The notes under the pieces are model-generated. The model saw only the letters and a program-made list of their open reading frames with translations, was not told where the DNA came from and did not search any database. DNA of 64,000 nt from an uncultured Collinsella sp. (GTDB lineage: Bacteria > Actinomycetota > Coriobacteriia > Coriobacteriales > Coriobacteriaceae): the NCBI GenBank assembly GCA_938045065.1, contig CALIOA010000068.1, forward strand, positions 77,495 to 141,494. Reading direction: 5' to 3'. Every line of letters begins with the position of its first letter. Position 1 is the first letter of the stretch. Shown here piece by piece: positions 2,587-44,644 of the stretch. Both the position numbers and the translations under genes were made by a program.

Positions 2587-4374
2587 CTACATCAGGCGCA
2601 GGCTGACGTCCTTGAGCTGGGCGCCGCTAACGGCACTCGGGGCGCCCGACATGAGGTCGGAGCCGCTGGCCGTCTTGGGGAACGCCATGACGTCGCGGAT
2701 GGAGTCGGAACCGGTGAGCAGCATGCACACGCGGTCCAGGCCCAAAGCGAAACCGCCCATCGGGGGCGCACCAAACTTGAGTGCCTCCATGAGGAAGCCG
2801 AACTGAGACTCGGCACGCTCCTCGGTAAAGCCCAGGAGCTTGAGCATGGACATCTGCATCTCGGCGTTGTGGATACGCATACCGCCGCCGCCGGCCTCAA
2901 AGCCGTCCATGACAAAGTCGTAGGTGCAAGAACCGGCTGCCAACGGATCGGCCTCGATCTTGGCGATGTCGGTCTCGGTCGGCAGGGTGAAGGGCTGGTG
3001 CTCGGCAGCGTAAGCCTTGCGATCCTCGTCCCAGTGGAACAGCGGGAAGTTGACGACCCACAGGAAGTCGTGGCCCTCGCGCTTGATCTCGAGTGCGTTG
3101 GCCATGTGAGAACGCATGCCGCCCAGGATCTCGTCGGAGAGCAGGCGCGGGCCGGCGGCGAACATCACAAGGTCGCCGGGCTCGACGTCCATGCGCTCGC
3201 GCAGAGCGGCCATCTCCTCGTCCGAGAAGAACTTGACGATGGGGCTGTTGATGGAGCCGTCCTCGCGGAAGGCGATCCAGGCCAGGCCCTTGGCGCCAAA
3301 CGTGGAGGCCACGCCGGCGAGCTTATCGATCTTGGCACGTGCCCAGGCACCGGCGCCCTTGGCGTTGATGGCCTTGACGACAGAGCCCTCCTCGTTTGCG
3401 GCAGTCGCAAAGACCTTGAACTTGGAGTTGGCAAAGATGTCGGTCAGGTCGACCAGGTGCATGCCATAGCGGGTATCGGGCTTGTCGGAGCCATAGGTGT
3501 CCATGGCATCCCAGTAGTTCATGCGACGCAGCGGCGTGGGCATCTCGACGCCCATGCGGCCGAAAGCATCGGCCAGGACTTCTTCGAGTGCGCTCATGAC
3601 ATCGTTCTGGTCCACGAAGGACATCTCGATGTCGACCTGGGTGAACTCGGGCTGACGGTCGGCACGCAGGTCCTCGTCGCGGAAGCACTTGGCAACCTGG
3701 TAGTAGCGCTCGACGCCACCGACCATGAGCAGCTGCTTCAGGAGCTGCGGGGACTGCGGCAGGGCATAGAAGTTACCCGGCTGAATACGGCTGGGAACGA
3801 TGAAGTCGCGGGCGCCCTCGGGCGTGGACTTAAACAGGGAGGGCGTCTCGACCTCCATGAACTCACGGTTGTGCAGCGCCTCGCGAATGGCAAAGGTGAA
3901 GTCGGAGCGCAGCTTGAGGTTGGCCATCATCTCGGGACGGCGGAGGTCCAGATAGCGATAGCGCAGACGGGTGTCCTCGCTGGTCTCGATGCCGTCCTCG
4001 ATCTGGAACGGCGGGGTGACGGACGTGTTGAGCACCTCGGCGTGGTCGGTCAGGACCTCGATCTCGCCGGTCGCGAGCTTGGTGTTGGTGGTCTCCTCGC
4101 CACGGGAGCGCACGACGCCGTGGATCTTGATGGGCCACTCGGGACGCATGGTCTCGGCGATCTTAAAGGCATCGCCATCGGAGTGCTCGGGGTCGAAGGT
4201 GAGCTGCGTGATGCCCTCGCGGTCGCGAAGGTCGCAGAAGATAAGGCCGCCGTGGTCGCGGCGACGGCTCACCCAACCGGTGAGGGTGACCTCTTCGCCC
4301 ACGTTCTCGAAGCGAAGCTCGCCGCAGGTACGGGTGTGCATGGAATGCTCATCGATGGGACGGGTCTGGCTCAT
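2587..4374 (-). CDS. aspS: aspartate--tRNA ligase
   Basis: 595 aa; full-length class II aaRS with OB-fold N-terminus, FRDEDLRADRQPEFTQVD and a GGG..R.HN motif region typical of AspRS. Confidence 0.95.
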   Translation of the reverse strand: MSQTRPIDEHSMHTRTCGELRFENVGEEVTLTGWVSRRRDHGGLIFCDLRDREGITQLTFDPEHSDGDAFKIAETMRPEWPIKIHGVVRSRGEETTNTKLATGEIEVLTDHAEVLNTSVTPPFQIEDGIETSEDTRLRYRYLDLRRPEMMANLKLRSDFTFAIREALHNREFMEVETPSLFKSTPEGARDFIVPSRIQPGNFYALPQSPQLLKQLLMVGGVERYYQVAKCFRDEDLRADRQPEFTQVDIEMSFVDQNDVMSALEEVLADAFGRMGVEMPTPLRRMNYWDAMDTYGSDKPDTRYGMHLVDLTDIFANSKFKVFATAANEEGSVVKAINAKGAGAWARAKIDKLAGVASTFGAKGLAWIAFREDGSINSPIVKFFSDEEMAALRERMDVEPGDLVMFAAGPRLLSDEILGGMRSHMANALEIKREGHDFLWVVNFPLFHWDEDRKAYAAEHQPFTLPTETDIAKIEADPLAAGSCTYDFVMDGFEAGGGGMRIHNAEMQMSMLKLLGFTEERAESQFGFLMEALKFGAPPMGGFALGLDRVCMLLTGSDSIRDVMAFPKTASGSDLMSGAPSAVSGAQLKDVSLRLM

Positions 4375-4630
4375 ACCAGTGATCCTCCTTTATGGATCTG
4401 TGCCGCCCCGTGTCGTTCCGGGCGGCGTCGTACAGATTTGCCCAGCCTGCGTAAACCGCGCAGCCAGACATGGCGTTCTATGTTATCGCACCCGCGTCGA
4501 TGTGCCGCGAAAAAGTAGCTCTTACCCAAAGACTTGACGGAGACGAAACAATTGACGCACCGCGGCACCCGCCCGCGCTATTCACGTGCGACAATATGCC
4601 CCAATAAAACAGCACTTGGAAAGGCCCATC

Positions 4631-5338: not shown

Positions 5339-5382
5339 CAACCCTTCGCGTGCTAAACTTTTCTGCGTCGAAGGGAACTTAT

Positions 5383-6165
5383 ATGGACAAACGAGATCTT
5401 GAGCAATTGCTAAGTGACGTGGCAGACGGAAGCATTACGCCGGCCGATGCCCTCACGCGCATCCAGACGGCGCCGACCGCCGACCTGGGCTTTGCACAGC
5501 TCGATCTTTCGCGCGGAGTGCGCCAGGGAGCCGGCGAGGTTGTCTACGGTGCCGGTAAAACCGCCGAGCAAATTGCCGCCATTATCGAAGCGCTGCGCGA
5601 TGCCGGCCAGGAGCGCATCCTGGTCACGCGCCTGGATGCCGAAAAGGCAGCCCGCACCTCGGAGTTCCTCGGCAACGGCATCGACCTGGGATATGTCCCG
5701 GACGCGCAGCTCGCCCTCGTGGGCGGCAAGCCCTCCCCTACCGGCAACGGACGCATCGTCGTCGCCTGCGCCGGCACGAGCGACCTGCCCGTCGCCGAGG
5801 AAGCCGCGTTGACGGCCGAGTTCTATGGCAACGAGGTCGACCTCCTCTACGACGTAGGCGTCGCCGGCCTGCACCGCCTACTCGCGCATGCCGAGGAACT
5901 TGCCCAGGCACAGGTGGTCATCGCCATCGCCGGCATGGAGGGCGCGTTGGCGAGCGTTATCGGCGGTCTGGTGAGCTGTCCGGTCATCGCCGTTCCCACC
6001 AGCGTGGGCTACGGCGCAAGTTTTGGTGGCGTAGCCGCACTGCTCGCCATGCTCAATTCCTGTGCCAGCGGCGTATCGGTCGTCAATATCGACAACGGCT
6101 TTGGCGCCGCTTACCAGGCAAGTCTTATCAATCATCTGAGCGCCGGCACACCCCGCGCCCGCTAA
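5383..6165 (+). CDS. larB: nickel-pincer cofactor biosynthesis protein LarB (PurE-like carboxylase/hydrolase)
   Basis: C-terminal PurE-like AIR-carboxylase fold (GMEGALASVIGGLVSCPVIAVPTSVGYG). It is clustered with larC, larD and larA. Confidence 0.8.
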   Translation: MDKRDLEQLLSDVADGSITPADALTRIQTAPTADLGFAQLDLSRGVRQGAGEVVYGAGKTAEQIAAIIEALRDAGQERILVTRLDAEKAARTSEFLGNGIDLGYVPDAQLALVGGKPSPTGNGRIVVACAGTSDLPVAEEAALTAEFYGNEVDLLYDVGVAGLHRLLAHAEELAQAQVVIAIAGMEGALASVIGGLVSCPVIAVPTSVGYGASFGGVAALLAMLNSCASGVSVVNIDNGFGAAYQASLINHLSAGTPRAR

Positions 6166-6175
6166 GGAGCATTCC

Positions 6176-7087
6176 ATGTCCAATCATCAGCACACGCTTA
6201 TCATCGACGGCACCTCGGGCATCAGCGGCGATATGACCGTCGCGGCCCTGCTCGACCTGGGCGCCAGCGAGGAGCACCTGCGCGAACAGCTCGCCACACT
6301 GCCGGTCGACGGCTTTACGATCGCCGTCACGCGCGTAAACAAGCATGGCATCGACGCCTGCGATTTCGACGTTCAGCTGGCAGAAGAGCTCGAGAACCAC
6401 GACCACGACATGGCATGGCTCTACGGCAACGAAGCAGCTGCCGAGCACACGCACGAGCACGAGCACCACCATCATGACCATGACGAGCATGAGCACTGCC
6501 ATGAGCATGATCATGAGACCCACGGCCATGGCCACGAGGGTCACCATCACGTCCACCACCATCACCACCGTTCTTTGGCGGACGTCACCGCTATCATCGA
6601 CGGCTCGCAGCTAAGCGATGGCGCCAAGCGTCGTGCGCTCGCCATCTTTACCGCGCTCGCCGCCGCCGAGGCAAAGGCCCACGGCAAAACGCCCGAGACC
6701 GTCATGTTCCACGAGGTAGGCGCCGTCGATTCCATCGTCGACGTCTGCTCTGTCGCCATCTGCCTCGATGACCTAGGTATTGAGGACATCGTGGTCGAGT
6801 CGCTCTCCGAAGGCCACGGAACCATTCGCTGCGCCCACGGCCTTATGCCCATTCCCGTCCCCGCTGTCGTCAACCTGTGCCAGGCGGGCAATATCGCCCT
6901 CACGCCCGCACCGGTCGCTGGCGAGCTCGTGACGCCCACGGGCGCCGCCATCGTCACCGCGCTGCGCACGTCCGAGCACCTGCCGGCACGCTACCACATC
7001 GAGGCCGTCGGCTACGGCGCCGGCAAGCGCCCCTACGAGGGTTGCTCCGGCACGCTCCGTTGTCTACTCGTTGACGTGGATGCATAG
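6176..7087 (+). CDS. larC: nickel insertion protein LarC, N-terminal (LarC1-type) domain with His-rich insert; the C-terminal CTP-binding domain is absent
   Basis: IDGTSGISGDM motif of LarC/DUF111 and a His-rich stretch HEHEHHHHDHDEHEHCHEHDHETHGHGHEGHHHVHHHHH. The ORF stops 2 nt before the TetR gene. Confidence 0.75.
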   Translation: MSNHQHTLIIDGTSGISGDMTVAALLDLGASEEHLREQLATLPVDGFTIAVTRVNKHGIDACDFDVQLAEELENHDHDMAWLYGNEAAAEHTHEHEHHHHDHDEHEHCHEHDHETHGHGHEGHHHVHHHHHRSLADVTAIIDGSQLSDGAKRRALAIFTALAAAEAKAHGKTPETVMFHEVGAVDSIVDVCSVAICLDDLGIEDIVVESLSEGHGTIRCAHGLMPIPVPAVVNLCQAGNIALTPAPVAGELVTPTGAAIVTALRTSEHLPARYHIEAVGYGAGKRPYEGCSGTLRCLLVDVDA

Positions 7088-7089
7088 CC

Positions 7090-7629
7090 ATGGATGCCCG
7101 CAAAGAAAAAAGCCGCGCTGCCATCGTTGCAGCGTTCTCCGAGCTGCTACGCGAAGTGGACTACGGCAAGATCACTGTCGGCGACATCATCGCTCGCGCC
7201 CACGTAGGCCGCGCGACATTCTACGGCCTCTTTAAGAGCAAAGACGACCTACTGTCCGAGCTCGTGAGCGACATCTGCACCCACGCCCTCGACGACGATG
7301 GTACGCCGCTCGACGACCCACTCGTGCAAGTCGAGCATATCCTCAACAACCTCTGGGAGCGCCGCCAGGGCGTCCGAGCCCTCGTAGCCGGCGCCGGCTC
7401 CCGCGTCTTCGCCGACTGCCTACGCAAGACCATCATGTCACGAGCAGCCGAAACCGTGCCCGCCGACCCCACAGGCCCCGCCGGCACCATGGACCGCAGC
7501 TTCTTACTACACCACATAGCCTCAAGCTTCGTAGCAACCGTCCAATGGTGGGCCTGGCACAACTTCCAAGCCCCAAAAGAGAACGTAGCCAAAGACTACC
7601 TATCAGCCATAAAACCCCTCTTCAGCTAA
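7090..7629 (+). CDS. TetR/AcrR-family transcriptional regulator
   Basis: N-terminal TetR HTH (ITVGDIIARAHVGRATFYGLFKSKDDL); 179 aa. Confidence 0.85.
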   Translation: MDARKEKSRAAIVAAFSELLREVDYGKITVGDIIARAHVGRATFYGLFKSKDDLLSELVSDICTHALDDDGTPLDDPLVQVEHILNNLWERRQGVRALVAGAGSRVFADCLRKTIMSRAAETVPADPTGPAGTMDRSFLLHHIASSFVATVQWWAWHNFQAPKENVAKDYLSAIKPLFS

Positions 7630-7787
7630 GTAAGAAACTCATCTCAAAGCACCGCCCCACCCCAAGGCGCCACGCATCCCAAAGTGTCACTCGCACTTCG
7701 ATGCCCCCAACAGCAACAAGCCCCTCCCATCCAAATTCAGATATATATATGTTGGGTTGCTTGTTCGAACACAGCCAAAAATGCCCA

Positions 7788-7912
7788 GGGCTCGGTAAGG
7801 GTTAACTTTCCAACGCACTCCGCAGGACGCAAAAAGGCTCGCCGCACGAAGTGCGCAGCGAGCCTTTTTGCATGTCCGAGGACGCGTTGGAAAGTTAACC
7901 CTTACCGAGCCC
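7788..7912. repeat. ~125-bp palindromic element, copy A (conserved centre, variable complementary outer arms)
   Basis: Outer arms GGGCTCGGTAAGGGTTAACTTTCCAACGC/GCGTTGGAAAGTTAACCCTTACCGAGCCC flank a core ACTCCGCAGGACGCAAAAAGGCTCGC-CGCACGAAGTGCG-CAGCGAGCCTTTTTGCATGTCCGAGGAC. A second copy sits at 10600-10726. Confidence 0.7.
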
Positions 7913-7936
7913 GGACCTTATAGAGCCGTCCTTAGC

Positions 7937-8668
7937 CTAGAACATGCCCAAGAAACCGTGCACAAACAGTGCGGCCAGAGCGGCACCGATAAACGGTGCG
8001 ATGCCAGGAACAAGCAGGCCATACTTCCAGTTGTTGTCGGCCTTGTTCTTGATCGGCAGTACCTGGTAAGCCATGCGAGGACCAAGGTCACGAGCCTGGT
8101 TCATGGCGAAGCCGGTGATGCCGCCCATGCCCATGCCAACGGCCCAAACGATCAGGCCGACGCAGACGGCGAGCATCAAAACGTTCTCACCAGCGCGGCT
8201 AGCGGCAGCAAGGATGGCGCTGATGAACACAAAGGTGCAGATAGCCTCGCAGAAGAAGTTACGGGCATAGTTCGTGCCCTCGGTAGTAGGGTTGGTCGAG
8301 AAGATGTTGCGCTGGGCAATAGGATCGACGACGCCCTCGGAAGCCTTGAACTCATCGGCATACATAAGCCAAGCGATTACGGCGCCCACAAAGCCGACGA
8401 GCATATCGGCAATCATGAAGGGGATGCAGCTGCTCCACGGCACCAGGCCTACGATGCACTGGGCAAGCACCATGGCGGGGTTCATGCACACGGCGCCGCC
8501 AAAGACAAACAGGCAGACCGAGATGCCAAAAGACCAGGTGGTGATGGCAAACATGTGACCGGAGCCCTGATACTTGGTGCCCTTGAGTACGGTATCGCAG
8601 TGCACGCCCACGCCAAAGATGATCATGAGGGCCGTTGCGCCGAATTCGCAGAGGAGTTTGGTAAGCAT
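7937..8668 (-). CDS. larD: MIP-family aquaglyceroporin (lactic acid channel LarD/GlpF-like)
   Basis: 6-TM MIP-channel architecture; adjacent to larA, as in lar operons. Confidence 0.8.
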   Translation of the reverse strand: MLTKLLCEFGATALMIIFGVGVHCDTVLKGTKYQGSGHMFAITTWSFGISVCLFVFGGAVCMNPAMVLAQCIVGLVPWSSCIPFMIADMLVGFVGAVIAWLMYADEFKASEGVVDPIAQRNIFSTNPTTEGTNYARNFFCEAICTFVFISAILAAASRAGENVLMLAVCVGLIVWAVGMGMGGITGFAMNQARDLGPRMAYQVLPIKNKADNNWKYGLLVPGIAPFIGAALAALFVHGFLGMF

Positions 8669-8717
8669 AAAACCTTATCTTTCTTGTCGGTTATAAACGA
8701 TTCGTTTAGGCCGCGTA

Positions 8718-9995
8718 CTAGTGCTGTGCGACGACAACGCCCAGGCCATCGGGAATGACGGCCACCTTGGCATCGGCACCCTTCATCTCAAAGGCGAGCT
8801 TGAGCGCCTCATCGAGGGTGTTAACCGGCGTCATGTGCATATCCTTGATCATCTGGTGATCGCACAGGTCGGTAACCATGATCACAGGGTGATGCGCGAG
8901 GATGCGGGCAAAGATCTGGCTCGTCCACTGGTCGGGCAGGGTCTCGTCCTTAGGACGGTCGATGCAGGCGCGCTCAAACTCTGCCGGATCATTGTCGGCG
9001 ATGTTGTGATAGAAGCCCTCGCCACCGTGACCGTCGGCACAACCGGCGACATCGATGATCACGCCGCCCTCGGGAAGTGTGGCCTCTGCAGAGCACATGC
9101 CCTTCACGGCCTGATAGATGTTCTGGTCGAGCGGGTAGCCGCCATTGGTGGTAATGGCAATCTCGCACTCGACGGGCTCAACGCCGGCAAGGCTCTTCAC
9201 GAACTCGCAGCCAGCCTCGTGCGCCTTGTGGATGTCGCCGGCAAAGGAGCCGATGACCTCGTGCTTGCCGTTGAGCACCACGTTAAGCACAAAGGCAAGG
9301 TGAGCCATCTCGGCAGCGGCAAACATGTCCTCGCTCACGTGGTTGTGGCACAGGTTGCCGGCACGCGAGTGGGAATCATTCACAAACTGACCGTTATGGT
9401 TGTACATGATGGTCTTGTAGCTGGCGATACCAGGCAGGACGGACTTGCGGCTACCAGAGAAACCAGCAAAGAAGTGCGGCTCAATAAAGCCCTCGGCAAG
9501 CAGCAGATCGCAATCGGCGGCAATCTTGTTGATGATGCACTCGCCACCAGAAGGCAGGGTGCCGATCTTTTTCATCATGCTGTCATCAGTCGCGACGTGC
9601 ATAACGATTTCCTCGTTGGCAACAATCTCCTCGCCGTACTTGTTGACGAGCTCCTCATGCGTCGACGGACGATGCATACCCGTAGCAACCAAAATACGCA
9701 CACGAGCCTCGGGTGCAGCAGTATGGATGTGATGCAGCAGAATAGGCATCGTCACACGCGATGGAACGGGGCGCGTATGGTCGGAGCTAATGATGACGAT
9801 ATCCTTCTTGCCAGCACAAAGCTCCTCGAGCGACGGCGAGCCATAAGGGTTGGCAAGCGACTCCTCTACCAGCTCTTCCTGCGATTTCGTGGTCTTAAAC
9901 TCGTTTTGATGACCTTCCATCACACCCGCGAAGTTCTTATCCTCGAGCTCCAGATGCAACGTCTTGTGGTCAAACGGCAGTTCACATTCAAACAA
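8718..9995 (-). CDS. larA: lactate racemase LarA (nickel-pincer dependent, DUF2088)
   Basis: 425 aa, the LarA family size and domain content; co-located with larB, larC and larD. Confidence 0.85.
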   Translation of the reverse strand: MFECELPFDHKTLHLELEDKNFAGVMEGHQNEFKTTKSQEELVEESLANPYGSPSLEELCAGKKDIVIISSDHTRPVPSRVTMPILLHHIHTAAPEARVRILVATGMHRPSTHEELVNKYGEEIVANEEIVMHVATDDSMMKKIGTLPSGGECIINKIAADCDLLLAEGFIEPHFFAGFSGSRKSVLPGIASYKTIMYNHNGQFVNDSHSRAGNLCHNHVSEDMFAAAEMAHLAFVLNVVLNGKHEVIGSFAGDIHKAHEAGCEFVKSLAGVEPVECEIAITTNGGYPLDQNIYQAVKGMCSAEATLPEGGVIIDVAGCADGHGGEGFYHNIADNDPAEFERACIDRPKDETLPDQWTSQIFARILAHHPVIMVTDLCDHQMIKDMHMTPVNTLDEALKLAFEMKGADAKVAVIPDGLGVVVAQH

Positions 9996-10599
9996 TGACG
10001 AGCGCCCTCTTCCTTTTCAACTGACACACTAGATAAACCGTTGGAAGGATACGCCGCTCACCGAAAAACACCACCGTCCACCGACTCATTAACACAACGT
10101 TCATATTTGACCCACAGCAAAACGGCCACGACCCCAAACGGGACCGCGGCCGCCTGTAAAAGACACAATAGACAGGATGACTTACGCAGCTCCGAGGCAA
10201 ACATCTACCCCGAGATGTACGCACGTAAGTCATTTTGCATAAATTCGTTAATTAATTGCATAAAATGGTGCAAGGATTTCTAGCCGTAACAGGGTAGTAC
10301 CCTCCGGAGCGTGCATTTTCGCGAGTATTCAGCATCGCCGGATAAGATTTTGGTGTCAAAAGTCTTTCAAAAGGTAGATAGTCCTCATGGCTCGTCCCAT
10401 CTGGATAGCAAGCGGCGAGAAACCAGCTATATATGGACATCGCCAAGGCCCAATTGGCGCGCAAAAGCATCAACAGGGACCGCAAACGCCACCTATGGTC
10501 CTATACATCAATCATTGGCTGCTGAAAACTCCGTTTTTTGCACGTCGCCCCAGGCACCACCCTCACCCAGCAGTAATCCACCGAAGACCGGACATCGCA

Positions 10600-10726
10600 G
10601 GGCCCGCCATTAGTTTACTTTTAGGCACACTCCGCAGGACGCAAGAAGCCCTCGCCGCACGAAGTGCGCAGCGAGGGCTTCTTGCATGTCCGAGGACGTG
10701 CCTAAAAGTAAACTAATGGCGGGCCC
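10600..10726. repeat. ~127-bp palindromic element, copy B
   Basis: Same core as copy A, with compensatory changes in the inner stem (GCAAGAAGCCCTCGC/GCGAGGGCTTCTTGC) and different but perfectly complementary outer arms (GGGCCCGCCATTAGTTTACTTTTAGGCAC/GTGCCTAAAAGTAAACTAATGGCGGGCCC). Confidence 0.7.
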
Positions 10727-10747
10727 GGACGACTACAGGGCTATCGA

Positions 10748-13573
10748 TTACCCCGTGTTCTGCAGTCCTGCCGAGACGCCGGTCACAGTCGAAAGAATCA
10801 GGCTCATGTATTCGGCCTTCTTCTCCTCGGCCATCTCGTCCTGGTTCATACGCACCTCGCGAAGGGCGCGGACCTGGGCGATGGACAGGGCGTCGACGTA
10901 GGGGTTACGCACGCGAACGGCGCAGCCAAGCACGCGGCGACGCTGCAGCGGCCACTCGTCACCGACGATGGCAAGGACCCACTTACGCGTGAGCTGCATC
11001 TCGGTGAAGACCTTCTCGGACAAATCATCGCGGTCGCCCAGGTGCAGATACATCTTGGCGATGCGCTGATCGGTCTTAGCGATCGACATCTCGATGTTGT
11101 CGATGAACGTGCGGAAGAACGGCCACTCCTGGTAGGCAGCCTTGAGCTGGTCAAGATCGCCAAGCTGCTCGCAGGCGGTGCCCAGGCCGTACCAAGCGGC
11201 CAGGTTAATGCGCGCCTGGCTCCAGCTGAAGATCCACGGAATGGTACGCAGGTCGTCGAGCGACTTGGCACCCAAGCCGCGCTTGGCGGGACGCGAGCCG
11301 ATCGGCAGCAGACCGACCTCGGTCAGCGGCGTCACGGTCGAGAACCACGGTGTAAAGTCCTCGGTGTTCAGCAGGTCCAGATAGCGCTCGTGGCTTGCGG
11401 TGTTGAGCTTCTCGGCCATACCCCAGAACTTCTGCGTGGTCTCGGTGTTGGTCTTCTCGACACTCGGGGCCGACTGCAAAAGCGTTGCGGCGGCAACGGA
11501 CTCAACATGGCGCTGAGCCAGCGTGCGGTTGCCGTAACGGGCAAAGATGACCTCGCCCTGCTCGGTGAGCTTAAAGAAGCAGTTGACCGAACCCTTGGGC
11601 TGCGCCAGCACGGCCTTGTTGGCCGGGCCGCCGCCACGGCCCACGGCACCGCCGCGACCGTGCATGAGCACCAGGTCGATATTGTTCTTCTCGGCCCACT
11701 TGGCGATGCGCTCCTGCGCGGAGTGCAGCGCGAGCATGGCCGTGGTAGGACCGGCGTCCTTGGAGGAATCGGAGTAGCCCAGCATAACCTCCATGCGGCG
11801 GTTGGTCTGGGCAAGGCGCTTCTGCACCACGGGCAGCGTAAGCATCTGGTCGAGCACGTCAACGCAGCCCTCGAGGTCCTCGAGCTGCTCGAACAGCGGG
11901 ATCACGTCGAGCTCGGGGACATCCTCCTCGTGCGCAAAGGACAGGTGGGCCAGCTCAAAGACGTCAGCCACATGCTGGGCGCTCTTGGTGAACGAGATGA
12001 TGTAGCGGTGCGCCATCTTCTTGCCGTAGCGCTTTTGGATGGAACCGATAGCGCGGAAGGTATCGATGACCTCGCGCGTCATGGGCTGCAGGTCGCCATG
12101 GATACCGTTCTCGTGGATATCCTTGAGGGCGCGGGCGTGCACCACGGAGTGCTGACGGAACTCCATCTCGACCATATGGAAGCCGAAGGACTCGACCTGC
12201 CAGATGATGGTCTGGACCGGGCCGTAGGCAGCACGGACGGCACCGCAGGCGGCCAGCGAACGCTGGACGACGCGCAGGTCATCCAGGAACTCGTCGGCGC
12301 TGTGGTACATGGTGTCGGTGATGCGACGGACGGTGGCGTTCAGACGGTCGGCCATGACGAGCATGACGGCGCGATGTGGCTCGTGCTCGGAGATCAACTC
12401 GGCACGTGCGGTGTACTGGGTGCTCATCTCGACCTGATGGTTCCACAGGTTGATGAGCTCGGCCGACGGCTTGCTGTAGGTGGCCTCGAGCGTGAGGTTA
12501 CGGCCGATGCGGCGGCATTTGTCCTCGAGCTTGAGCACCATGTGGGTGAAGTACTTGGCGGCGACCTCACGGCTCACCTTGGCGGTGACGTTGGGGTTAC
12601 CGTCGCGGTCGGAACCGATCCAGCTGCCGGGATGGAAGAACGCCGGGCACAGCGGCGGCACGGTACCGGCCTTGTCGCCCAGCACCCAGTCGTCAAAACG
12701 ACGGTAGATGACGGGGATAACGTCGAACAGCGTGTTATCGAAGATGTCGATGATGGTATCGGCTTCCTCGACCGGCGTGGGCTTCTTGAGCGCGATGGGG
12801 CTCGTACGCACCAGGGCGTCGATCTCCTGCAGCATATGGCGCTCGTTCTCCACCAGGTCGGAGCCGCCCAGACGCGGACGCTCCTCCAGCAGGTTGGAGA
12901 TACGGCGAATCTTGCCCTCGACGGCCTTACGACGGGCCTCAGTGGGGTGCGCGGTAAAGACGGGATGGAACTCAAGCTTGCCGAGCAGCTCGTTGGCGCC
13001 CTCGACGCCCAGCTCATTCACCAGCTGGTGATAGGCGACGGTGAGCTCGTTGGCGGGATCGACCTCGGTATCGGTCGACGCACCGGCCTCGCGCTCGCGC
13101 AGCTGCGCCACACGGTAGTTCTCCTCCGACAGGTTTGCCAGATGGAAGAAGCTCGTAAAGGCGCGGACAATGACCTGCTGCTTATCGAGCGGCAGGCTGT
13201 CGATCAAATCGACGACCTCACGAAATGCCACGGCAGTGGGTTCGTCGGCGGTGGGCACGCCCTGCTCGTCGACGGCCTCGTCGGCAGCACGGGTACCGGG
13301 GTTGCCGGCATTGGCCACAATCTCGGCCGACAGGATTTTGTCGAACAGGTCCGCGATCTCAGGATCATACTCGCTAAGCACACGACGCTCCAGGCGCAGG
13401 AACAACGCCAGATTGTCGCGCAGCTCCTCGGGGATCTCGATCTCGGCGAGACGCTCCCTGGACTCGGCATTCGAGCCGATTCGGTTAACGAGGCGGTTGA
13501 CCACGGCAGCGACGCGCGCCGCGGCTTCGGGTACAGACTGGTTGCTTAGGTTCTCAGCCACGTTTCCTCCCAT
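10748..13573 (-). CDS. ppc: phosphoenolpyruvate carboxylase
   Basis: 941 aa; VFTAHPTE catalytic motif and GYSDS..K motif region. Confidence 0.95.
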   Translation of the reverse strand: MGGNVAENLSNQSVPEAAARVAAVVNRLVNRIGSNAESRERLAEIEIPEELRDNLALFLRLERRVLSEYDPEIADLFDKILSAEIVANAGNPGTRAADEAVDEQGVPTADEPTAVAFREVVDLIDSLPLDKQQVIVRAFTSFFHLANLSEENYRVAQLREREAGASTDTEVDPANELTVAYHQLVNELGVEGANELLGKLEFHPVFTAHPTEARRKAVEGKIRRISNLLEERPRLGGSDLVENERHMLQEIDALVRTSPIALKKPTPVEEADTIIDIFDNTLFDVIPVIYRRFDDWVLGDKAGTVPPLCPAFFHPGSWIGSDRDGNPNVTAKVSREVAAKYFTHMVLKLEDKCRRIGRNLTLEATYSKPSAELINLWNHQVEMSTQYTARAELISEHEPHRAVMLVMADRLNATVRRITDTMYHSADEFLDDLRVVQRSLAACGAVRAAYGPVQTIIWQVESFGFHMVEMEFRQHSVVHARALKDIHENGIHGDLQPMTREVIDTFRAIGSIQKRYGKKMAHRYIISFTKSAQHVADVFELAHLSFAHEEDVPELDVIPLFEQLEDLEGCVDVLDQMLTLPVVQKRLAQTNRRMEVMLGYSDSSKDAGPTTAMLALHSAQERIAKWAEKNNIDLVLMHGRGGAVGRGGGPANKAVLAQPKGSVNCFFKLTEQGEVIFARYGNRTLAQRHVESVAAATLLQSAPSVEKTNTETTQKFWGMAEKLNTASHERYLDLLNTEDFTPWFSTVTPLTEVGLLPIGSRPAKRGLGAKSLDDLRTIPWIFSWSQARINLAAWYGLGTACEQLGDLDQLKAAYQEWPFFRTFIDNIEMSIAKTDQRIAKMYLHLGDRDDLSEKVFTEMQLTRKWVLAIVGDEWPLQRRRVLGCAVRVRNPYVDALSIAQVRALREVRMNQDEMAEEKKAEYMSLILSTVTGVSAGLQNTG

Positions 13574-15138: not shown

Positions 15139-15191
15139 ACACCTTTCTTTTGTATCGCGTCATAGGTAACGGTCATTATACGGCACAAACA

Positions 15192-15401
15192 CAAACAGCG
15201 GCGGCGCGTCTGACCGAACGAGGGTATGGGGACTCGTTCGGCCAGATGCGCCGCCGCTGTTTGCGATCCGTTTTCCTCCGTCCCCTTCGAATCACGCGAC
15301 CCCTTGGGGACGGAGGAAAACGGATCATTTCGTAGGCCCGTGGCCGCCTTGGAAACCGAATGATGGTACGAGCATCCATTCGGCTTCCAAGGCGGCCACG
15401 G
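15192..15401. repeat. three consecutive long GC-rich hairpins (arms ~30, 21 and 25 bp) between a truncated MFS gene and the hisS promoter
   Basis: Inverted repeats at 15192-15263, 15265-15326 and 15338-15401; no T-box consensus is present. Confidence 0.5.
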
Positions 15402-15436
15402 ATAGAACGGGGCGAACAGAAAAGAGCGACGGACGT

Positions 15437-25227: not shown

Positions 25228-25273
25228 TACTTAGGACCACGGCAACGTCGATGTTTTGGCAATGCCAGCGAGC

Positions 25274-25369
25274 GGGCGCCAGAGCGAACAAATTGGCATG
25301 AAAAGAGGACGGCATAGACCTTCTGGTCATGCCGTCCTCTTTGAATGACAAGTTGTCGCTCTGGCGCCC
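25274..25369. repeat. ~96-bp imperfect palindrome between the IS110 right end and the htpG 3' end
   Basis: Outer arms GGGCGCCAGAGCGA and inner arms GAGGACGGCAT(A)GACC pair across a centre at ~25322. Confidence 0.5.
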
Positions 25370-25372
25370 GCG

Positions 25373-25456
25373 CAGCGTCGACCGGTCCGCCGTTCGTTAG
25401 AACGGCGGAACTGAGGGCAGCGTCGACCGGTCCGCCGTTCGTTAGAACGGCGGAAC
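25373..25456. repeat. tandem direct duplication (2 x 39 bp, 45-bp period) of a hairpin downstream of htpG
   Basis: CAGCGTCGACCGGTCCGCCGTTCGTTAGAACGGCGGAAC occurs at 25373-25411 and 25418-25456, each with a 10-bp stem TCCGCCGTTC/GAACGGCGGA. Confidence 0.6.
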
Positions 25457-37317: not shown

Positions 37318-37465
37318 TGGCGGAGAGCTGGGGATTTCCGGGCATGCTACGCATGCCCTCCGGCTTCAAAGCCTGGCGGCTTTTCGCCCACGGGCTACAA
37401 ACGCTTTCGCGTTTGCTTAACGCCCGTGCCCTCTCGGGTTCGAATCCCCAGCGCCCTTTCTCGAT
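37318..37465 (-). repeat. tRNA-associated structured repeat element (Ser-locus copy)
   Basis: Starts with a 19-nt duplicate of the tRNA-Ser 3' end (TGGCGGAGAGCTGGGGATT on the plus strand). The core carries hairpin AAACGCTTTCGCGTTT and ends with a T-arm-like GGGTTCGAATCCCC. It is bounded by terminators at 37277-37307 and 37467-37494. Confidence 0.7.
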
Positions 37466-37466
37466 A

Positions 37467-37494
37467 ATAAAAAAGGGCCCCCGATGGGACCCTT
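37467..37494 (-). terminator. intrinsic terminator between tRNA-Ser and the repeat element
   Basis: AAGGGTCCC-ATCGG-GGGCCCTT hairpin with a T-run on the minus strand. Confidence 0.55.
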
Positions 37495-37508
37495 CTTTAA
37501 AGTTAAAC

Positions 37509-37599
37509 TGGCGGAGAGCTGGGGATTCGAACCCCAGATGCCCTTTTGGGGCATACTCGCTTAGCAGGCGAGCACCTTCGGCCTCTCGGTCAGCTCTCC
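37509..37599 (-). tRNA. tRNA-Ser (anticodon GCT), CCA encoded
   Basis: GGAGAGC acceptor, anticodon loop CTGCTAA, long variable arm and T-arm TGGGGTTCGAATCCCCA; 91 nt. Confidence 0.9.
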
Positions 37600-40508: not shown

Positions 40509-40585
40509 TGGTGCGGCGTATAGGATTCGAACCTATGACGTTCTGATTCGTAGTCAGACCCTCTATCCAGCTGAGGTAACGCCGC
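40509..40585 (-). tRNA. tRNA-Arg (anticodon ACG), CCA encoded
   Basis: GCGGCGT acceptor, anticodon loop CTACGAA and T-arm ATAGGTTCGAATCCTAT; own promoter TTGACC-17-CATAAT upstream. Confidence 0.9.
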
Positions 40586-40743
40586 AACTTGTTGATTATT
40601 ATGCACATGGACTGAATAATGGTCAAGCGTTTTTTCAAAAAAAGTTATCGAATTTGATTTTTACTCATTTGGAGGGCTTGGCACGATCTTCGGTGCATCG
40701 CGATATAAGAAAAGCCCCCGTTTCCGGAGGCTTTAAATTCAAT

Positions 40744-40888
40744 TGGTGCGGCGTATAGGATTCCGCGCATCCGCTGCGCGGATCCGCACCGGCTTCGCCC
40801 GCCTGCCGGCGGACTCGCCCGCTCGCTAAAAACGCTCCGCGTTTTCTTGACGCTCGCGCCTCGAACGAGGTTCGAATCTCCGCAATGC
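40744..40888 (-). repeat. tRNA-associated structured repeat element (Arg-locus copy 2)
   Basis: Same architecture as copy 1, with a slightly diverged right end (CGAACGAGGTTCGAATCTCCGCAATGCC). Confidence 0.7.
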
Positions 40889-40933
40889 CCCCGTAAAGGA
40901 AAAGCCCCCGTTTCCGGAGGCTAAAAACCCAAT

Positions 40934-41010
40934 TGGTGCGGCGTATAGGATTCGAACCTATGACGTTCTGATTCGTAGTCAGACCCTCTATCCAGCTGAG
41001 GTAACGCCGC
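40934..41010 (-). tRNA. tRNA-Arg (anticodon ACG), second copy
   Basis: Identical sequence to the copy at 40509-40585; own TTGACC-17-CATAAT promoter. Confidence 0.9.
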
Positions 41011-41100
41011 AACGCACGGATTATTATGCACGCGAGCCCCCGATGGGTCAAGCGACAATTTGGAAAATTTTTACGAAGCGCTGATTAAGTTGTCATGCTG

Positions 41101-41212
41101 ATCCGCACCGGCTTCGCCCGCCTGCCGGCGCGCTCGCCCGCGGGCTAAAATCGCTCCGCGCTTTCTTGACGCCCGCGCCTCGACCGAGGTTCGAATCCAT
41201 GCGGCGTCCGCC
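41101..41212 (-). repeat. tRNA-associated repeat element, 5'-truncated copy (lacks the tRNA 3'-end duplicate)
   Basis: Starts within the core at ATCCGCACCGGCTTCGCCCGCC; the rest is identical to the following full copy. Confidence 0.6.
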
Positions 41213-41252
41213 TAAAAGAAAAGCCCCCGTTGCCGGAGGCTTTAAGTTCGAT

Positions 41253-41402
41253 TGGTGCGGCGTATAGGATTCCGCGCATCCGCTTCGCGGATCCGCACCG
41301 GCTTCGCCCGCCTGCCGGCGCGCTCGCCCGCGGGCTAAAATCGCTCCGCGCTTTCTTGACGCCCGCGCCTCGACCGAGGTTCGAATCCATGCGGCGTCCG
41401 CC
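41253..41402 (-). repeat. tRNA-associated structured repeat element (Arg-locus copy 4)
   Basis: Full copy, bounded by terminators at 41213-41250 and 41403-41440. Confidence 0.7.
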
Positions 41403-41442
41403 TAAAAGAAAAGCCCCCGTTGCCGGAGGCTTTAAGTTCGAT

Positions 41443-41519
41443 TGGTGCGGCGTATAGGATTCGAACCTATGACGTTCTGATTCGTAGTCAGACCCTCTAT
41501 CCAGCTGAGGTAACGCCGC
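41443..41519 (-). tRNA. tRNA-Arg (anticodon ACG), third copy
   Basis: Identical sequence to the other two Arg copies. Confidence 0.9.
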
Positions 41520-43543: not shown

Positions 43544-43717
43544 ATGGACGCAGTTTTTTCCTTTTTGTTTGGCACCCGCACCGGTTTTGCCATCCTTTTC
43601 GCCGGTGGCATCCTGCTATTTGCGATTCTTGCCTTTGTGATGGAGAAGCGCACCCATAAGATGTATGTCGACCGCGGCCCCAAGTCCGAGGACGAAGAAG
43701 ACAGCTTCTGGGACTAA
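43544..43717 (+). CDS. possible small membrane protein (57 aa)
   Basis: MDAVFSFLFGTRTGFAILFAGGILLFAILAFVMEKRTHK..; one TM helix; followed by a strong terminator. Below the ORF-track size cutoff; speculative. Confidence 0.3.
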   Translation: MDAVFSFLFGTRTGFAILFAGGILLFAILAFVMEKRTHKMYVDRGPKSEDEEDSFWD

Positions 43718-43728
43718 CCTGCCAAAAA

Positions 43729-43861
43729 GGGACAGGTTTATTTTGGTCGGTTTTATCTGGGCAAACGCAAGCGCCCCGCAACTGGAATTGAGCCAGTTGC
43801 GGGGCGCTTTTTGCTCAAGGTACAAAACCGCAGGAAAACCCTGCCAAAATAAACCTGTCCC
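43729..43861. terminator. bidirectional terminator: inner 16-bp stem plus TTTTT (plus strand), outer 18-bp stem plus TTTTT (minus strand, proC)
   Basis: AGCGCCCCGCAACTGG-AATTGAG-CCAGTTGCGGGGCGCT TTTTT; the outer GGGACAGGTTTATTTTGG/CCAAAATAAACCTGTCCC pair is followed by TTTTT on the minus strand. Confidence 0.6.
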
Positions 43862-43873
43862 TTATTGGCCAGT

Positions 43874-44644
43874 TTACTGGAGAGTAGCGTCGATGGCCTT
43901 GACGAGGGCGCTGCGCATGCCGGCGTCCTCGAGCGCGACGACGCCCTTGATGGTAGCACCGCCGGGCGAGCACACGGCATCCTTCATCGCTGCGGGATGC
44001 TGACCGGTTGCAAGCTGCAGCTTTGCCGTACCCAGCACCATCTGGCTCACAATGCGATAGGCATCGGCGCGCGGAATACCGTGTTTGACGGCCGCATCGC
44101 CCAGAGCCTCGATCGCCATGGCGACAAACGCCGGAGCGCAACCACCCACCGTGCCGCCCACGAACAGCAGGCTCGTATCGAGCTCGACCACCGTACCGAG
44201 CTTGCCAAGCAGATCAAGCACCACGGCGCTCTGCTCATCACTAAGCGTGGAAGCCTTCTCGCAAGCGATGACGCCCTCGCCCACCGAAACCGGTGTGTTG
44301 GGCACCGTCGAGATATGCGCGACGCCCGGCAGGACCTGCTCCCACTTGGCACTGTCCCAGGTCCAGGCAACCGACAGAACGACCTTTTTGGCAAGAGCAT
44401 CCTTGAGCGGGGCGAATACCTTCTCGACCATGTACGGTTTGACCGCAGCGACCACGATATCGGATGCGGCGACAACCTCGGCGGCATCGTGGCAAGCGGC
44501 CATCCCACGCGCCTCACAGCGCTCAACCAGTGCGTCGTAGCGACCCGCACAGGCGCACATGTCGCTCGCAGCTACACCGGCAGCGATCCAGCCATCGGCC
44601 ATGGCGCTCGCCATATTGCCAAAACCGACAAATCCAATCTTCAT
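43874..44644 (-). CDS. proC: pyrroline-5-carboxylate reductase
   Basis: N-terminal Rossmann motif GFVGFGNMA and a P5CR dimerisation domain. Confidence 0.9.
   Translation of the reverse strand: MKIGFVGFGNMASAMADGWIAAGVAASDMCACAGRYDALVERCEARGMAACHDAAEVVAASDIVVAAVKPYMVEKVFAPLKDALAKKVVLSVAWTWDSAKWEQVLPGVAHISTVPNTPVSVGEGVIACEKASTLSDEQSAVVLDLLGKLGTVVELDTSLLFVGGTVGGCAPAFVAMAIEALGDAAVKHGIPRADAYRIVSQMVLGTAKLQLATGQHPAAMKDAVCSPGGATIKGVVALEDAGMRSALVKAIDATLQ

Follow-up and report, generated by a model that had tools for sequence, protein, structure and literature searches.

A Collinsella-specific family of long, structured, REP-like hairpins lies just past the stop codons of central-metabolism genes

Among bacterial miniature inverted-repeat transposable elements (MITEs), Correia/NEMIS, ERIC, RUP and BOX give transcripts with long hairpins. 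These elements measure 100-150 nt, form a long hairpin in mRNA for which RNase III processing and effects on mRNA stability have been proposed, keep terminal inverted repeats, show target-site duplications, and occur in both orientations and in many copies. REP (repetitive extragenic palindromic), BIME and REPIN elements are extragenic palindromes tagged by GTAG or CGTC (PMC3733652, PMC3116915), and REPs are targets of IS3-family insertion sequences (ISs) such as IS1397 and ISKpn1 (PMC1525189). We analyzed a 64,000-nt stretch of DNA from an uncultured Collinsella sp. (contig CALIOA010000068.1; hereafter the window, with positions counted from its first nucleotide), in which a preliminary description had placed two long palindromes, copy A at 7788-7912 and copy B at 10600-10726, on either side of the genes larD and larA. 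Each palindrome is an independent member of a Collinsella-specific repeat family. The family belongs to a known broad kind, that of extragenic palindromic repeats and 3' hairpins, and its mix of traits is unusual: a conserved center with free yet perfect arms of fixed length, sense orientation right after stop codons, and few, conserved sites behind a coherent set of genes.

The positions of the two palindromes proved exact. In copy A, two arms of 29 nt (7788-7816 and 7884-7912) are 100% complementary and enclose 67 nt; in copy B, arms of the same length and the same complementarity (10600-10628 and 10698-10726) enclose 69 nt. The shared center described earlier was recovered, including a 25-nt stretch (CTCGCCGCACGAAGTGCGCAGCGAG) that is identical in both copies and occurs twice in the window against an expectation of 0, and so were the compensated differences between the two inner stems (GCAAAAAGGCTCGC versus GCAAGAAGCCCTCGC). 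Two other points of the preliminary description needed revision. The outer arms are indeed perfectly self-complementary but are not completely different between copies: ~17 of the 29 positions agree in register, every difference is compensated, and the arms are diverged homologs with the consensus GGGnnnnnnnGGGnTTACTTTCCnGCnC. The supposed direct repeats around the central hairpin, CTCCGCAGGAC and GTCCGAGGAC, are the two sides of a bulge-interrupted helix in which they form base pairs with one another (UCC/GGA and GGAC/GUCC), so that the entire element is one nearly continuous ~60-bp rod with small conserved bulges. Both copies folded as one long rod (-102 to -115 kcal/mol; z = -15 to -18). 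The gene-sense fold, on the minus strand in the window, was 7-10 kcal/mol more stable than that of the other strand (minus versus plus strand, -111.9 versus -102.3 kcal/mol for copy A and -114.8 versus -107.4 kcal/mol for copy B). A covariance model of the family also scored the minus strand above the plus strand, at 148 versus 86 bits for copy A and 145 versus 82 bits for copy B.

Metagenomes were scanned by using the two bulge motifs with a free inner stem as the query, and genomes by using the apical hairpin. The metagenome scan returned at least 119 loci, with the human gut as the source of all matches listed, and the genome scan at least 120 loci, with the matches listed essentially all from Collinsella (C. 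aerofaciens and many Collinsella sp.). Viral contigs gave 0 matches to two patterns, which leaves a phage origin unsupported. Sorting of the >230 instances among the matches listed by their flanks resolved ~12-13 unrelated site types across the genus, two copies being present within the 64-kb window. The genes upstream encode the PFOR C-terminus, a class IV (IlvE-like) aminotransferase, phosphoenolpyruvate carboxylase (ppc), the MIP channel protein LarD, FBP aldolase II (FBA), phosphate acetyltransferase (Pta), Fe-ADH, a GrcA-like glycyl-radical protein, an Opp ATPase (OppF-like) and a GHMP kinase. Arm "types" are alleles of one site, with T1, T4 and T7 behind larD, T2 and T9 behind ppc, and T5, T6 and T15 behind the gene for the IlvE-like aminotransferase. 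Searches of Rfam 15 (E ≤ 5 for both copies, gathering score for the window) returned no more than the sub-threshold miRNA-precursor noise that any long hairpin produces, and a description of the Collinsella hairpin family was not found in the searchable literature. The supplement of Fremin & Bhatt 2021 holds unnamed Collinsella candidates; the core is absent from the 200 of its 408 files that were searched.

Neighboring genes were assigned at all instances with a simple GC3-based gene caller. Across 238 instances and at essentially every site type, the upstream neighbor in the gene sense was a co-oriented gene ending within ~6-33 nt of the element; the neighbor on the opposite side was on either strand and 150-700 nt distant. 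At the 11 sites with a clear upstream gene, the exact distance from stop codon to arm was 8-33 nt, always in sense orientation. Placement is thus extragenic and mainly downstream of open reading frames (ORFs), as for REPs. A hairpin that starts 8-33 nt past a stop codon and in the sense of the gene is most likely transcribed within the mRNA 3' untranslated region (3' UTR). At the OppF-like site, which lies between two convergent genes, the covariance model picked up in five genomes another, diverged element in the other sense, at a distance of 160-300 nt from the first; no clear ORF was found just upstream of this second element.

The element is ~127 nt long, or ~138 nt when the conserved GUCC and UGCG flanks are included. 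In the RNA sense it comprises a perfectly paired 29-bp outer stem of free sequence and fixed length, small conserved asymmetric bulges (GUCC-U-CGGAC-AU opposite GUCC-UGC-GGA-G), and a covarying inner stem of 14-15 bp that leads into an invariant apical stem with G·U pairs and a C(UUCG)G cap. The invariant blocks in the gene sense are CGUCCUCGGACAUG, GCUGCGCACUUCGUGCGGCG and GUCCUGCGGA. RNAalifold on 43 non-redundant gene-sense elements gave 56 consensus pairs, 39 of which carried double changes. In 99 distinct model-aligned sequences, 98.1% of cells paired, compared with 73.6% in column shuffles (0 of 500 reached 98.1%) and at most 48% in a slid-partner control; double changes were present in 41 of the 56 pairs and the covariation score was 0.628 versus 0.164. 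Compensatory changes therefore go beyond the controls, in the manner of structured RNAs, and the earlier suggestion of a long hairpin maintained by selection is supported. Of the identities then offered for the hairpin, a structured RNA is very probably correct and REP/MITE-like behavior at the DNA level is also seen, whereas a cassette recombination site was not supported (see below).

The strand on which this structure acts can be read from several features. All family members have UUCG, UACG or UUUG as their apical loop, and only in the gene sense; U·G and G·U pairs are invariant in the apical stem; the element stands in the sense orientation at essentially all sites, and the sense fold is the more stable one. 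Because the loop and the G·U features are present on the gene-sense strand only, we conclude that the core evolves as RNA. Two further, diverged subfamilies share this layout and have kept the UUCG loop amid covariation of its closing stem. One lies directly past the ppc stop codon in many strains and the other is the partner element at the OppF-like site. Core diversity (0.00-0.03) is similar to that of codon positions 1 and 2, and arm diversity (0.03-0.09, against 0.06-0.17 at codon position 3) ranges from about one-third of third-position diversity up to roughly equal to it. Hypervariability of the arms was considered and rejected, since their diversity does not exceed that of third codon positions. 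Arm length is constant (28-30 bp) and each arm pair is drawn from 3-4 Watson-Crick types.

We lean, with moderate confidence, toward a REP-like structured repeat that is transcribed and serves as a stability or processing hairpin of the 3' UTR. The upstream gene would transcribe the hairpin into its mRNA 3' UTR, where it would act in cis as a 3'-end element for central-metabolism genes that, judged from gene identity, are probably highly expressed. The very stable UUCG-capped ~60-bp rod may block 3'-to-5' exonucleases, and/or the long perfect duplex may be cleaved by a double-strand-specific enzyme such as RNase III; the barrier or the cleavage would then set the mRNA 3' end and half-life, and the hairpin could insulate the next gene (as for copy B between ppc and larA). 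Most economically, the element is read as a REP-like structured repeat that turned into a 3'-UTR element or had been one from the start. The constant 29-bp length of the perfect duplex, together with the invariant bulges, suggests that the structure is measured and read by something, and the purely Watson-Crick evolution of the arms suggests that they are kept perfect either by a need for a perfect duplex or by DNA-level correction within the palindrome.

Several points weigh against the 3'-UTR hairpin. That transcription most likely runs through the element is concluded from its position, and the high expression of the genes served is assumed from their identity. At two of the ~13 sites, a clear ORF just upstream was not found. 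In the arms, G·U pairs make up ~0.3-1% of cells, with no consistent wobble bias to either strand. This pattern is atypical of pure RNA selection and suggests that the arms are either constrained or corrected at the DNA level or required to form a perfect duplex. The wobble bias of the arms had been considered as an indicator of strand and was dropped for its inconsistency.

A more elaborate version of the 3'-UTR hairpin is a regulon-type module, in which a dedicated RNA-binding protein or double-strand RNase would read the bulges, measure the 29-bp duplex and co-ordinate the fate of the principal fermentation and central-carbon mRNAs (PFOR, Pta, ADH, GrcA/PFL, FBA, ppc and IlvE), and in which the arms would be kept complementary by hairpin-templated correction of the DNA and not by selection on the RNA. 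We regard this version as distinctly unlikely; if true, it would be a dual DNA/RNA-constrained element of a sort not described for bacterial repeats.

Transcription termination was weighed separately. A U-rich run within 16 nt of the stem is confined to larD-site alleles, copy A included, where the U5 run listed in Table 1 could contribute to termination of larD transcription. A U tract is not present at the ppc (copy B), PFOR, FBA, Pta and other sites, and most sites thus lack the immediate U tract of an intrinsic (Rho-independent) terminator. Canonical terminators follow at a distance of 50-70 nt at several sites; the one at the ilvE site, a canonical hairpin with a U tract, is ~50 nt past the element. 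In a common deletion variant of the ilvE site, the shortened 3' arm of the element is fused to the downstream U tract. A role as canonical terminator was therefore rejected for most sites, given the missing U tract and the separate terminators downstream. With these terminators farther downstream and no U tract of its own, the element normally lies within the 3' UTR.

The family also shows rearrangements at the DNA level. In a single metagenome contig (L036), the ppc site is precisely without the element: ATAGCCCTG is joined directly to CGATGTCCGG, whereas in the window 138 nt bounded by GCCCTG stand between them. At this one apparent empty site, the 6-nt GCCCTG repeat of the junction overlaps the arm, so that a microhomology deletion is equally possible. 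The ppc site in other strains carries the second subfamily and then only the 3' half of the ppc element. Half elements break at the hairpin tip, sometimes with tandem duplications of the halves, and cores are exchanged, with one site carrying different inner stems in different strains. On the antisense strand, G(C/T)AG precedes the arm at ~9 of the 13 sites (in the sense, (C/U)GUCC), although the tag is not invariant. An IS3-family IS, made up of an HTH ORF and an rve ORF with the ends TGAACTGC...GCAGTTCA, sits exactly at the tip of the larD-site element in contigs of two assemblies, L082 (1086-2523) and L192 (7730-7782). L082 carries the IS at the tip of its PFOR-site element as well, and ends of related ISs at other places likewise adjoin small hairpins.

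Such behavior could be that of a selfish, REP/MITE-like mobile palindrome, tolerated in the harmless gap between stop codon and terminator without a host function, with a core needed for mobilization in trans by, for example, a Y1/HUH or other transposase. The family is dispersed, is present or absent at one site with GCCCTG microhomology, has different subfamilies occupying the same site, includes partial copies, bears at most sites a G(C/T)AG tag beside the arm as do GTAG-tagged REPs (PMC3733652) and is an IS target as REPs are (PMC1525189); IS200-family Y1 transposases are also present in Collinsella. We nevertheless consider a purely selfish element unlikely, because the family occupies, among the matches listed, only about a dozen sites whose positions are conserved across many species and do not vary, its orientation is the sense of the gene, and the UNCG loop and invariant G·U pairs occur in the gene sense only. 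Its ends are the least conserved part, the opposite of a terminal inverted repeat recognized by a transposase, and a clear target-site duplication was not found (at the one empty site, L036). A link to RAYT or other Y1 transposases was sought by tblastn of 2.0 Mb with IS200 and IS608 TnpA sequences as probes, which found only ordinary IS200; the end hairpins of these IS200 copies are unrelated to the family, and the copies do not adjoin elements in genuine contigs. IS200-family (Y1/HUH) ISs lie directly past terminator T-runs at L056:800-1340 and L178:40-560, with the end hairpins CTGGCCGCGCAGCGGCCAG and CCACCCGCTACGCGGGTGG.

The same DNA-level findings bear on a different proposal, namely that the palindrome extrudes as a hairpin or cruciform and is a binding or processing site (for gyrase or a recombinase, for example) behind heavily transcribed genes, with the RNA as a by-product. 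The arms are Watson-Crick on both strands without tolerance of wobble, breakpoints and IS insertions fall at the hairpin tip, the genes in front are likely strongly transcribed, and the core can apparently flip between the inverted arms. In the instance of the last (L184:7509-7649, one of ~50 at the site), the 67-nt core is inverted while the arms, the flanks and the upstream ilvE-like gene are unchanged; the contig is from a metagenome-assembled genome (MAG), and the inversion is either a true flip between the 29-bp inverted arms or a MAG assembly error. A DNA site is nonetheless quite improbable as the element's main identity, given that the strand asymmetry of the core is that of an RNA (the UNCG loop, and G·U pairs that become A·C mismatches on the other strand) and that orientation tracks the gene even in convergent pairs 160-300 nt apart. 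Contigs with mismatched arms (among them T3/T5, T5/T3 and L095/L098) had been candidates for inter-site recombination or inversion and were rejected, being best explained as assembly artifacts. L141:1-240 and L158:1-290 are fold-back artifacts in which left and right flanks are reverse complements of each other; L056 is a chimera of ppc, an ilvE-site flank, IS200 and foreign low-GC DNA; and many contigs end inside the element. The identical 67-nt cores thus break or mis-join metagenome assemblies into fold-back and chimeric contigs, which is relevant to the quality of Collinsella MAGs.

A further possibility is that the element is the precursor of a trans-acting small RNA (sRNA), with RNase III-type cleavage of the 29-bp stem freeing a ~70-nt inner hairpin whose CCUC bulges could pair with ribosome-binding sites. 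The fixed, perfect 29-bp duplex does enclose a conserved inner hairpin, and CCUC and CCUG do occur within the invariant bulge sequences. It would however be unusual for a single sRNA to come from a dozen nearly identical loci that each adjoin a stop codon, and the conserved motifs are mostly base-paired in the rod; we hold an sRNA precursor to be very unlikely.

In the window, the genes run larB (5350-6165, plus strand), a short larC (6176-7087, plus), a TetR regulator (7090-7629, plus) and copy A, followed on the minus strand by the MIP/larD gene, larA (8718-9995), a 600-nt spacer, copy B and ppc (Table 1). The preliminary description had raised the idea that the two palindromes are recombination sites delimiting a mobile larD-larA cassette, and had noted in the lar cluster a truncated larC and a TetR in place of the usual LarR. 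Two copies in direct orientation do flank larD-larA plus its leader, and GC content is slightly lower over larD-larA (0.53-0.59, compared with 0.60-0.65 nearby). Copy A, however, is the 3'-end element of larD and copy B that of ppc, the gene upstream in each case; the same family stands behind at least 10 unrelated genes, with the core at about a dozen unrelated places that have no link to lar; and the order larB-larC-TetR, A, larD-larA, B, ppc, in the orientations of the window, is conserved in ~60 Collinsella loci from many species among the matches listed. At no locus among these matches was the predicted single A/B hybrid element without larD-larA found, and the mismatched-arm contigs trace to assembly chimeras. 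The LarC homolog (303 aa) spans positions 1-234 of the 375-position Pfam Ni_insertion model and is ~90% identical across all Collinsella loci examined. As the short LarC and the TetR regulator are conserved along with the synteny, they are not marks of recent insertion or truncation. A mobile cassette is accordingly highly improbable, and larD-larA is bracketed by coincidence, since two genes that are neighbors each have a copy. Between ppc and larA, the spacer measures 330-1139 nt depending on the strain. The larA leader holds a terminator-like hairpin with a U tract (GGCGGCCGCGGUCCCGUUUGGGGUCGUGGCCGUUUUG; 10116-10154, minus strand) ~100 nt upstream of the larA start and, farther upstream (10235-10269), two direct repeats TTGCATAAA 21 nt apart; the hairpin and the repeats could serve in lar regulation as attenuator and operator.

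Table 1. Positions of the two hairpins, their parts and the genes they follow in the window
Feature	Positions	Strand	Basis or remark
Copy A, complete hairpin (3'-end element of larD)	7788..7912	- (RNA sense)	Perfect 29-bp arms, model score, fold
Copy A, conserved core	7817..7883	-	RNA sense: GUCCUCGGACAU, inner stem, CGCUGCGCAC-UUCG-GUGCGGCG, inner stem', GUCCUGCGGAGU
Copy A, apical UUCG tetraloop	7847..7850	-	CGAA on the plus strand
U5 run 7 nt past hairpin A in the RNA sense (GCCC-UGGGCAUUUUUGG)	7777..7781	-	
Copy B, complete hairpin (3'-end element of ppc)	10600..10726	-	Perfect 29-bp arms, model score, fold
Copy B, conserved core	10629..10697	-	
Copy B, apical UUCG tetraloop	10660..10663	-	
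9-nt leader UAGUCGUCC, present or absent along with hairpin B	10727..10735	-	Window versus empty site L036; GCCCUG microhomology at the indel junction
larD-like MIP channel gene	7937..8668	-	Stop codon 24 nt upstream of hairpin A
Phosphoenolpyruvate carboxylase gene (ppc)	10748..13573	-	Stop codon 21 nt upstream of hairpin B

Other structured features occur in the window. A rod-like nested hairpin of 120 nt, unrelated to the family, lies between convergent ORFs at 25262-25381 (-82 kcal/mol; z = -12), and two copies of the palindrome TCCGCCGTTCGTTAGAACGGCGGA follow it at 25386-25454. At 43716-43874, another unrelated nested hairpin of ~150 nt has 44-nt arms that are 82% complementary (-96 kcal/mol for the whole) and encloses a perfect 17-bp hairpin followed by a T-run, an arrangement that is terminator-like. 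Intergenic clusters at 2283-2455 and 15186-15409 hold three consecutive long hairpins each (arms of 20-31 nt, 81-100% complementary). The hairpins at these four places were rejected as family members, as their model scores were those of generic hairpins; long hairpins at gene ends seem to be a general feature of this genome. On the minus strand at 4386-4469, an Rfam aspS RNA (RF02930; 76 bits) lies upstream of the ORF at 2587-4374, the counterpart of an aspartyl-tRNA synthetase gene in L001, the matching contig. Intervals of ~430-510 nt separate three tRNA genes of equal score at 40512-41519, and a 131-nt inverted repeat at 37420-37550 has arms that resemble tRNA T-arms (GGTTCGAATCCCC).

Collinsella is among the most prevalent Actinobacteria of the human gut and its post-transcriptional control is little known; Coriobacteriia are not known to have Hfq, ProQ or CsrA. 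One very stable, strongly covarying structure labels a coherent group of central-metabolism genes at their 3' ends. The family is a ready candidate for a new Rfam-type family, and through it the formation and stability of mRNA 3' ends become open to testing in Coriobacteriia. It also offers a natural case of a palindrome whose core is constrained as RNA and whose arms are apparently constrained as DNA.

Compared with described systems, the family shares its genus, its human-gut source and a conserved hairpin motif with the Collinsella-1 RNA motif (RF01700; PMC2864571); no match to RF01700 was found for copies A and B at E ≤ 5 or over the window at gathering score, and the 3'-end hairpin family is distinct from Collinsella-1. 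Like integron attC sites, the elements are imperfect palindromes of similar size that lie just downstream of an ORF in fixed orientation, with structure conserved above sequence and with conserved unpaired bases. The conserved boxes of attC (R/L core sites) are, however, at the outer ends, which vary freely in Collinsella, and integron cassettes form arrays next to an integrase, whereas the Collinsella genes are scattered housekeeping genes and the lar/ppc synteny is conserved in ~60 loci. With intrinsic terminators and 3' stabilizers, the family has in common its place after the stop codon, a GC-rich stem and a UUCG-type loop as in many stable terminator hairpins, and copy A and the ilvE-site deletion variant directly precede a U-rich run; the Collinsella stem is ~60 bp long, compared with 5-14 bp in terminators. 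Unlike MITEs, the family has variable termini and a fixed position and orientation, and in place of conserved terminal inverted repeats it has a conserved core and arms that are the most diverged part between sites. The likeness to REPs extends further. REPs are extragenic palindromes that lie mostly downstream of ORFs, are probably transcribed and are thought to stabilize mRNA or aid termination, they carry a short tag by the stem (in Collinsella, G(C/T)AG in antisense and (C)GUCC in sense, at most but not all sites) and they are genus- or species-specific, and the IS3-family insertions at the Collinsella tip parallel the targeting of REPs by IS1397 and ISKpn1. No RAYT was identified in the 2.0 Mb searched with the IS200/IS608 probes. 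The Collinsella hairpin differs from REPs in its length (125-127 nt, with 29-bp arms and a nested inner hairpin, compared with 20-40 bp) and apparently, among the matches listed, in its number of conserved sites (about a dozen, compared with hundreds of REP copies and usually >100 per genome). It also has a conserved center with ends that drift, and it stands in sense orientation just past stop codons with a UNCG tetraloop at its tip.

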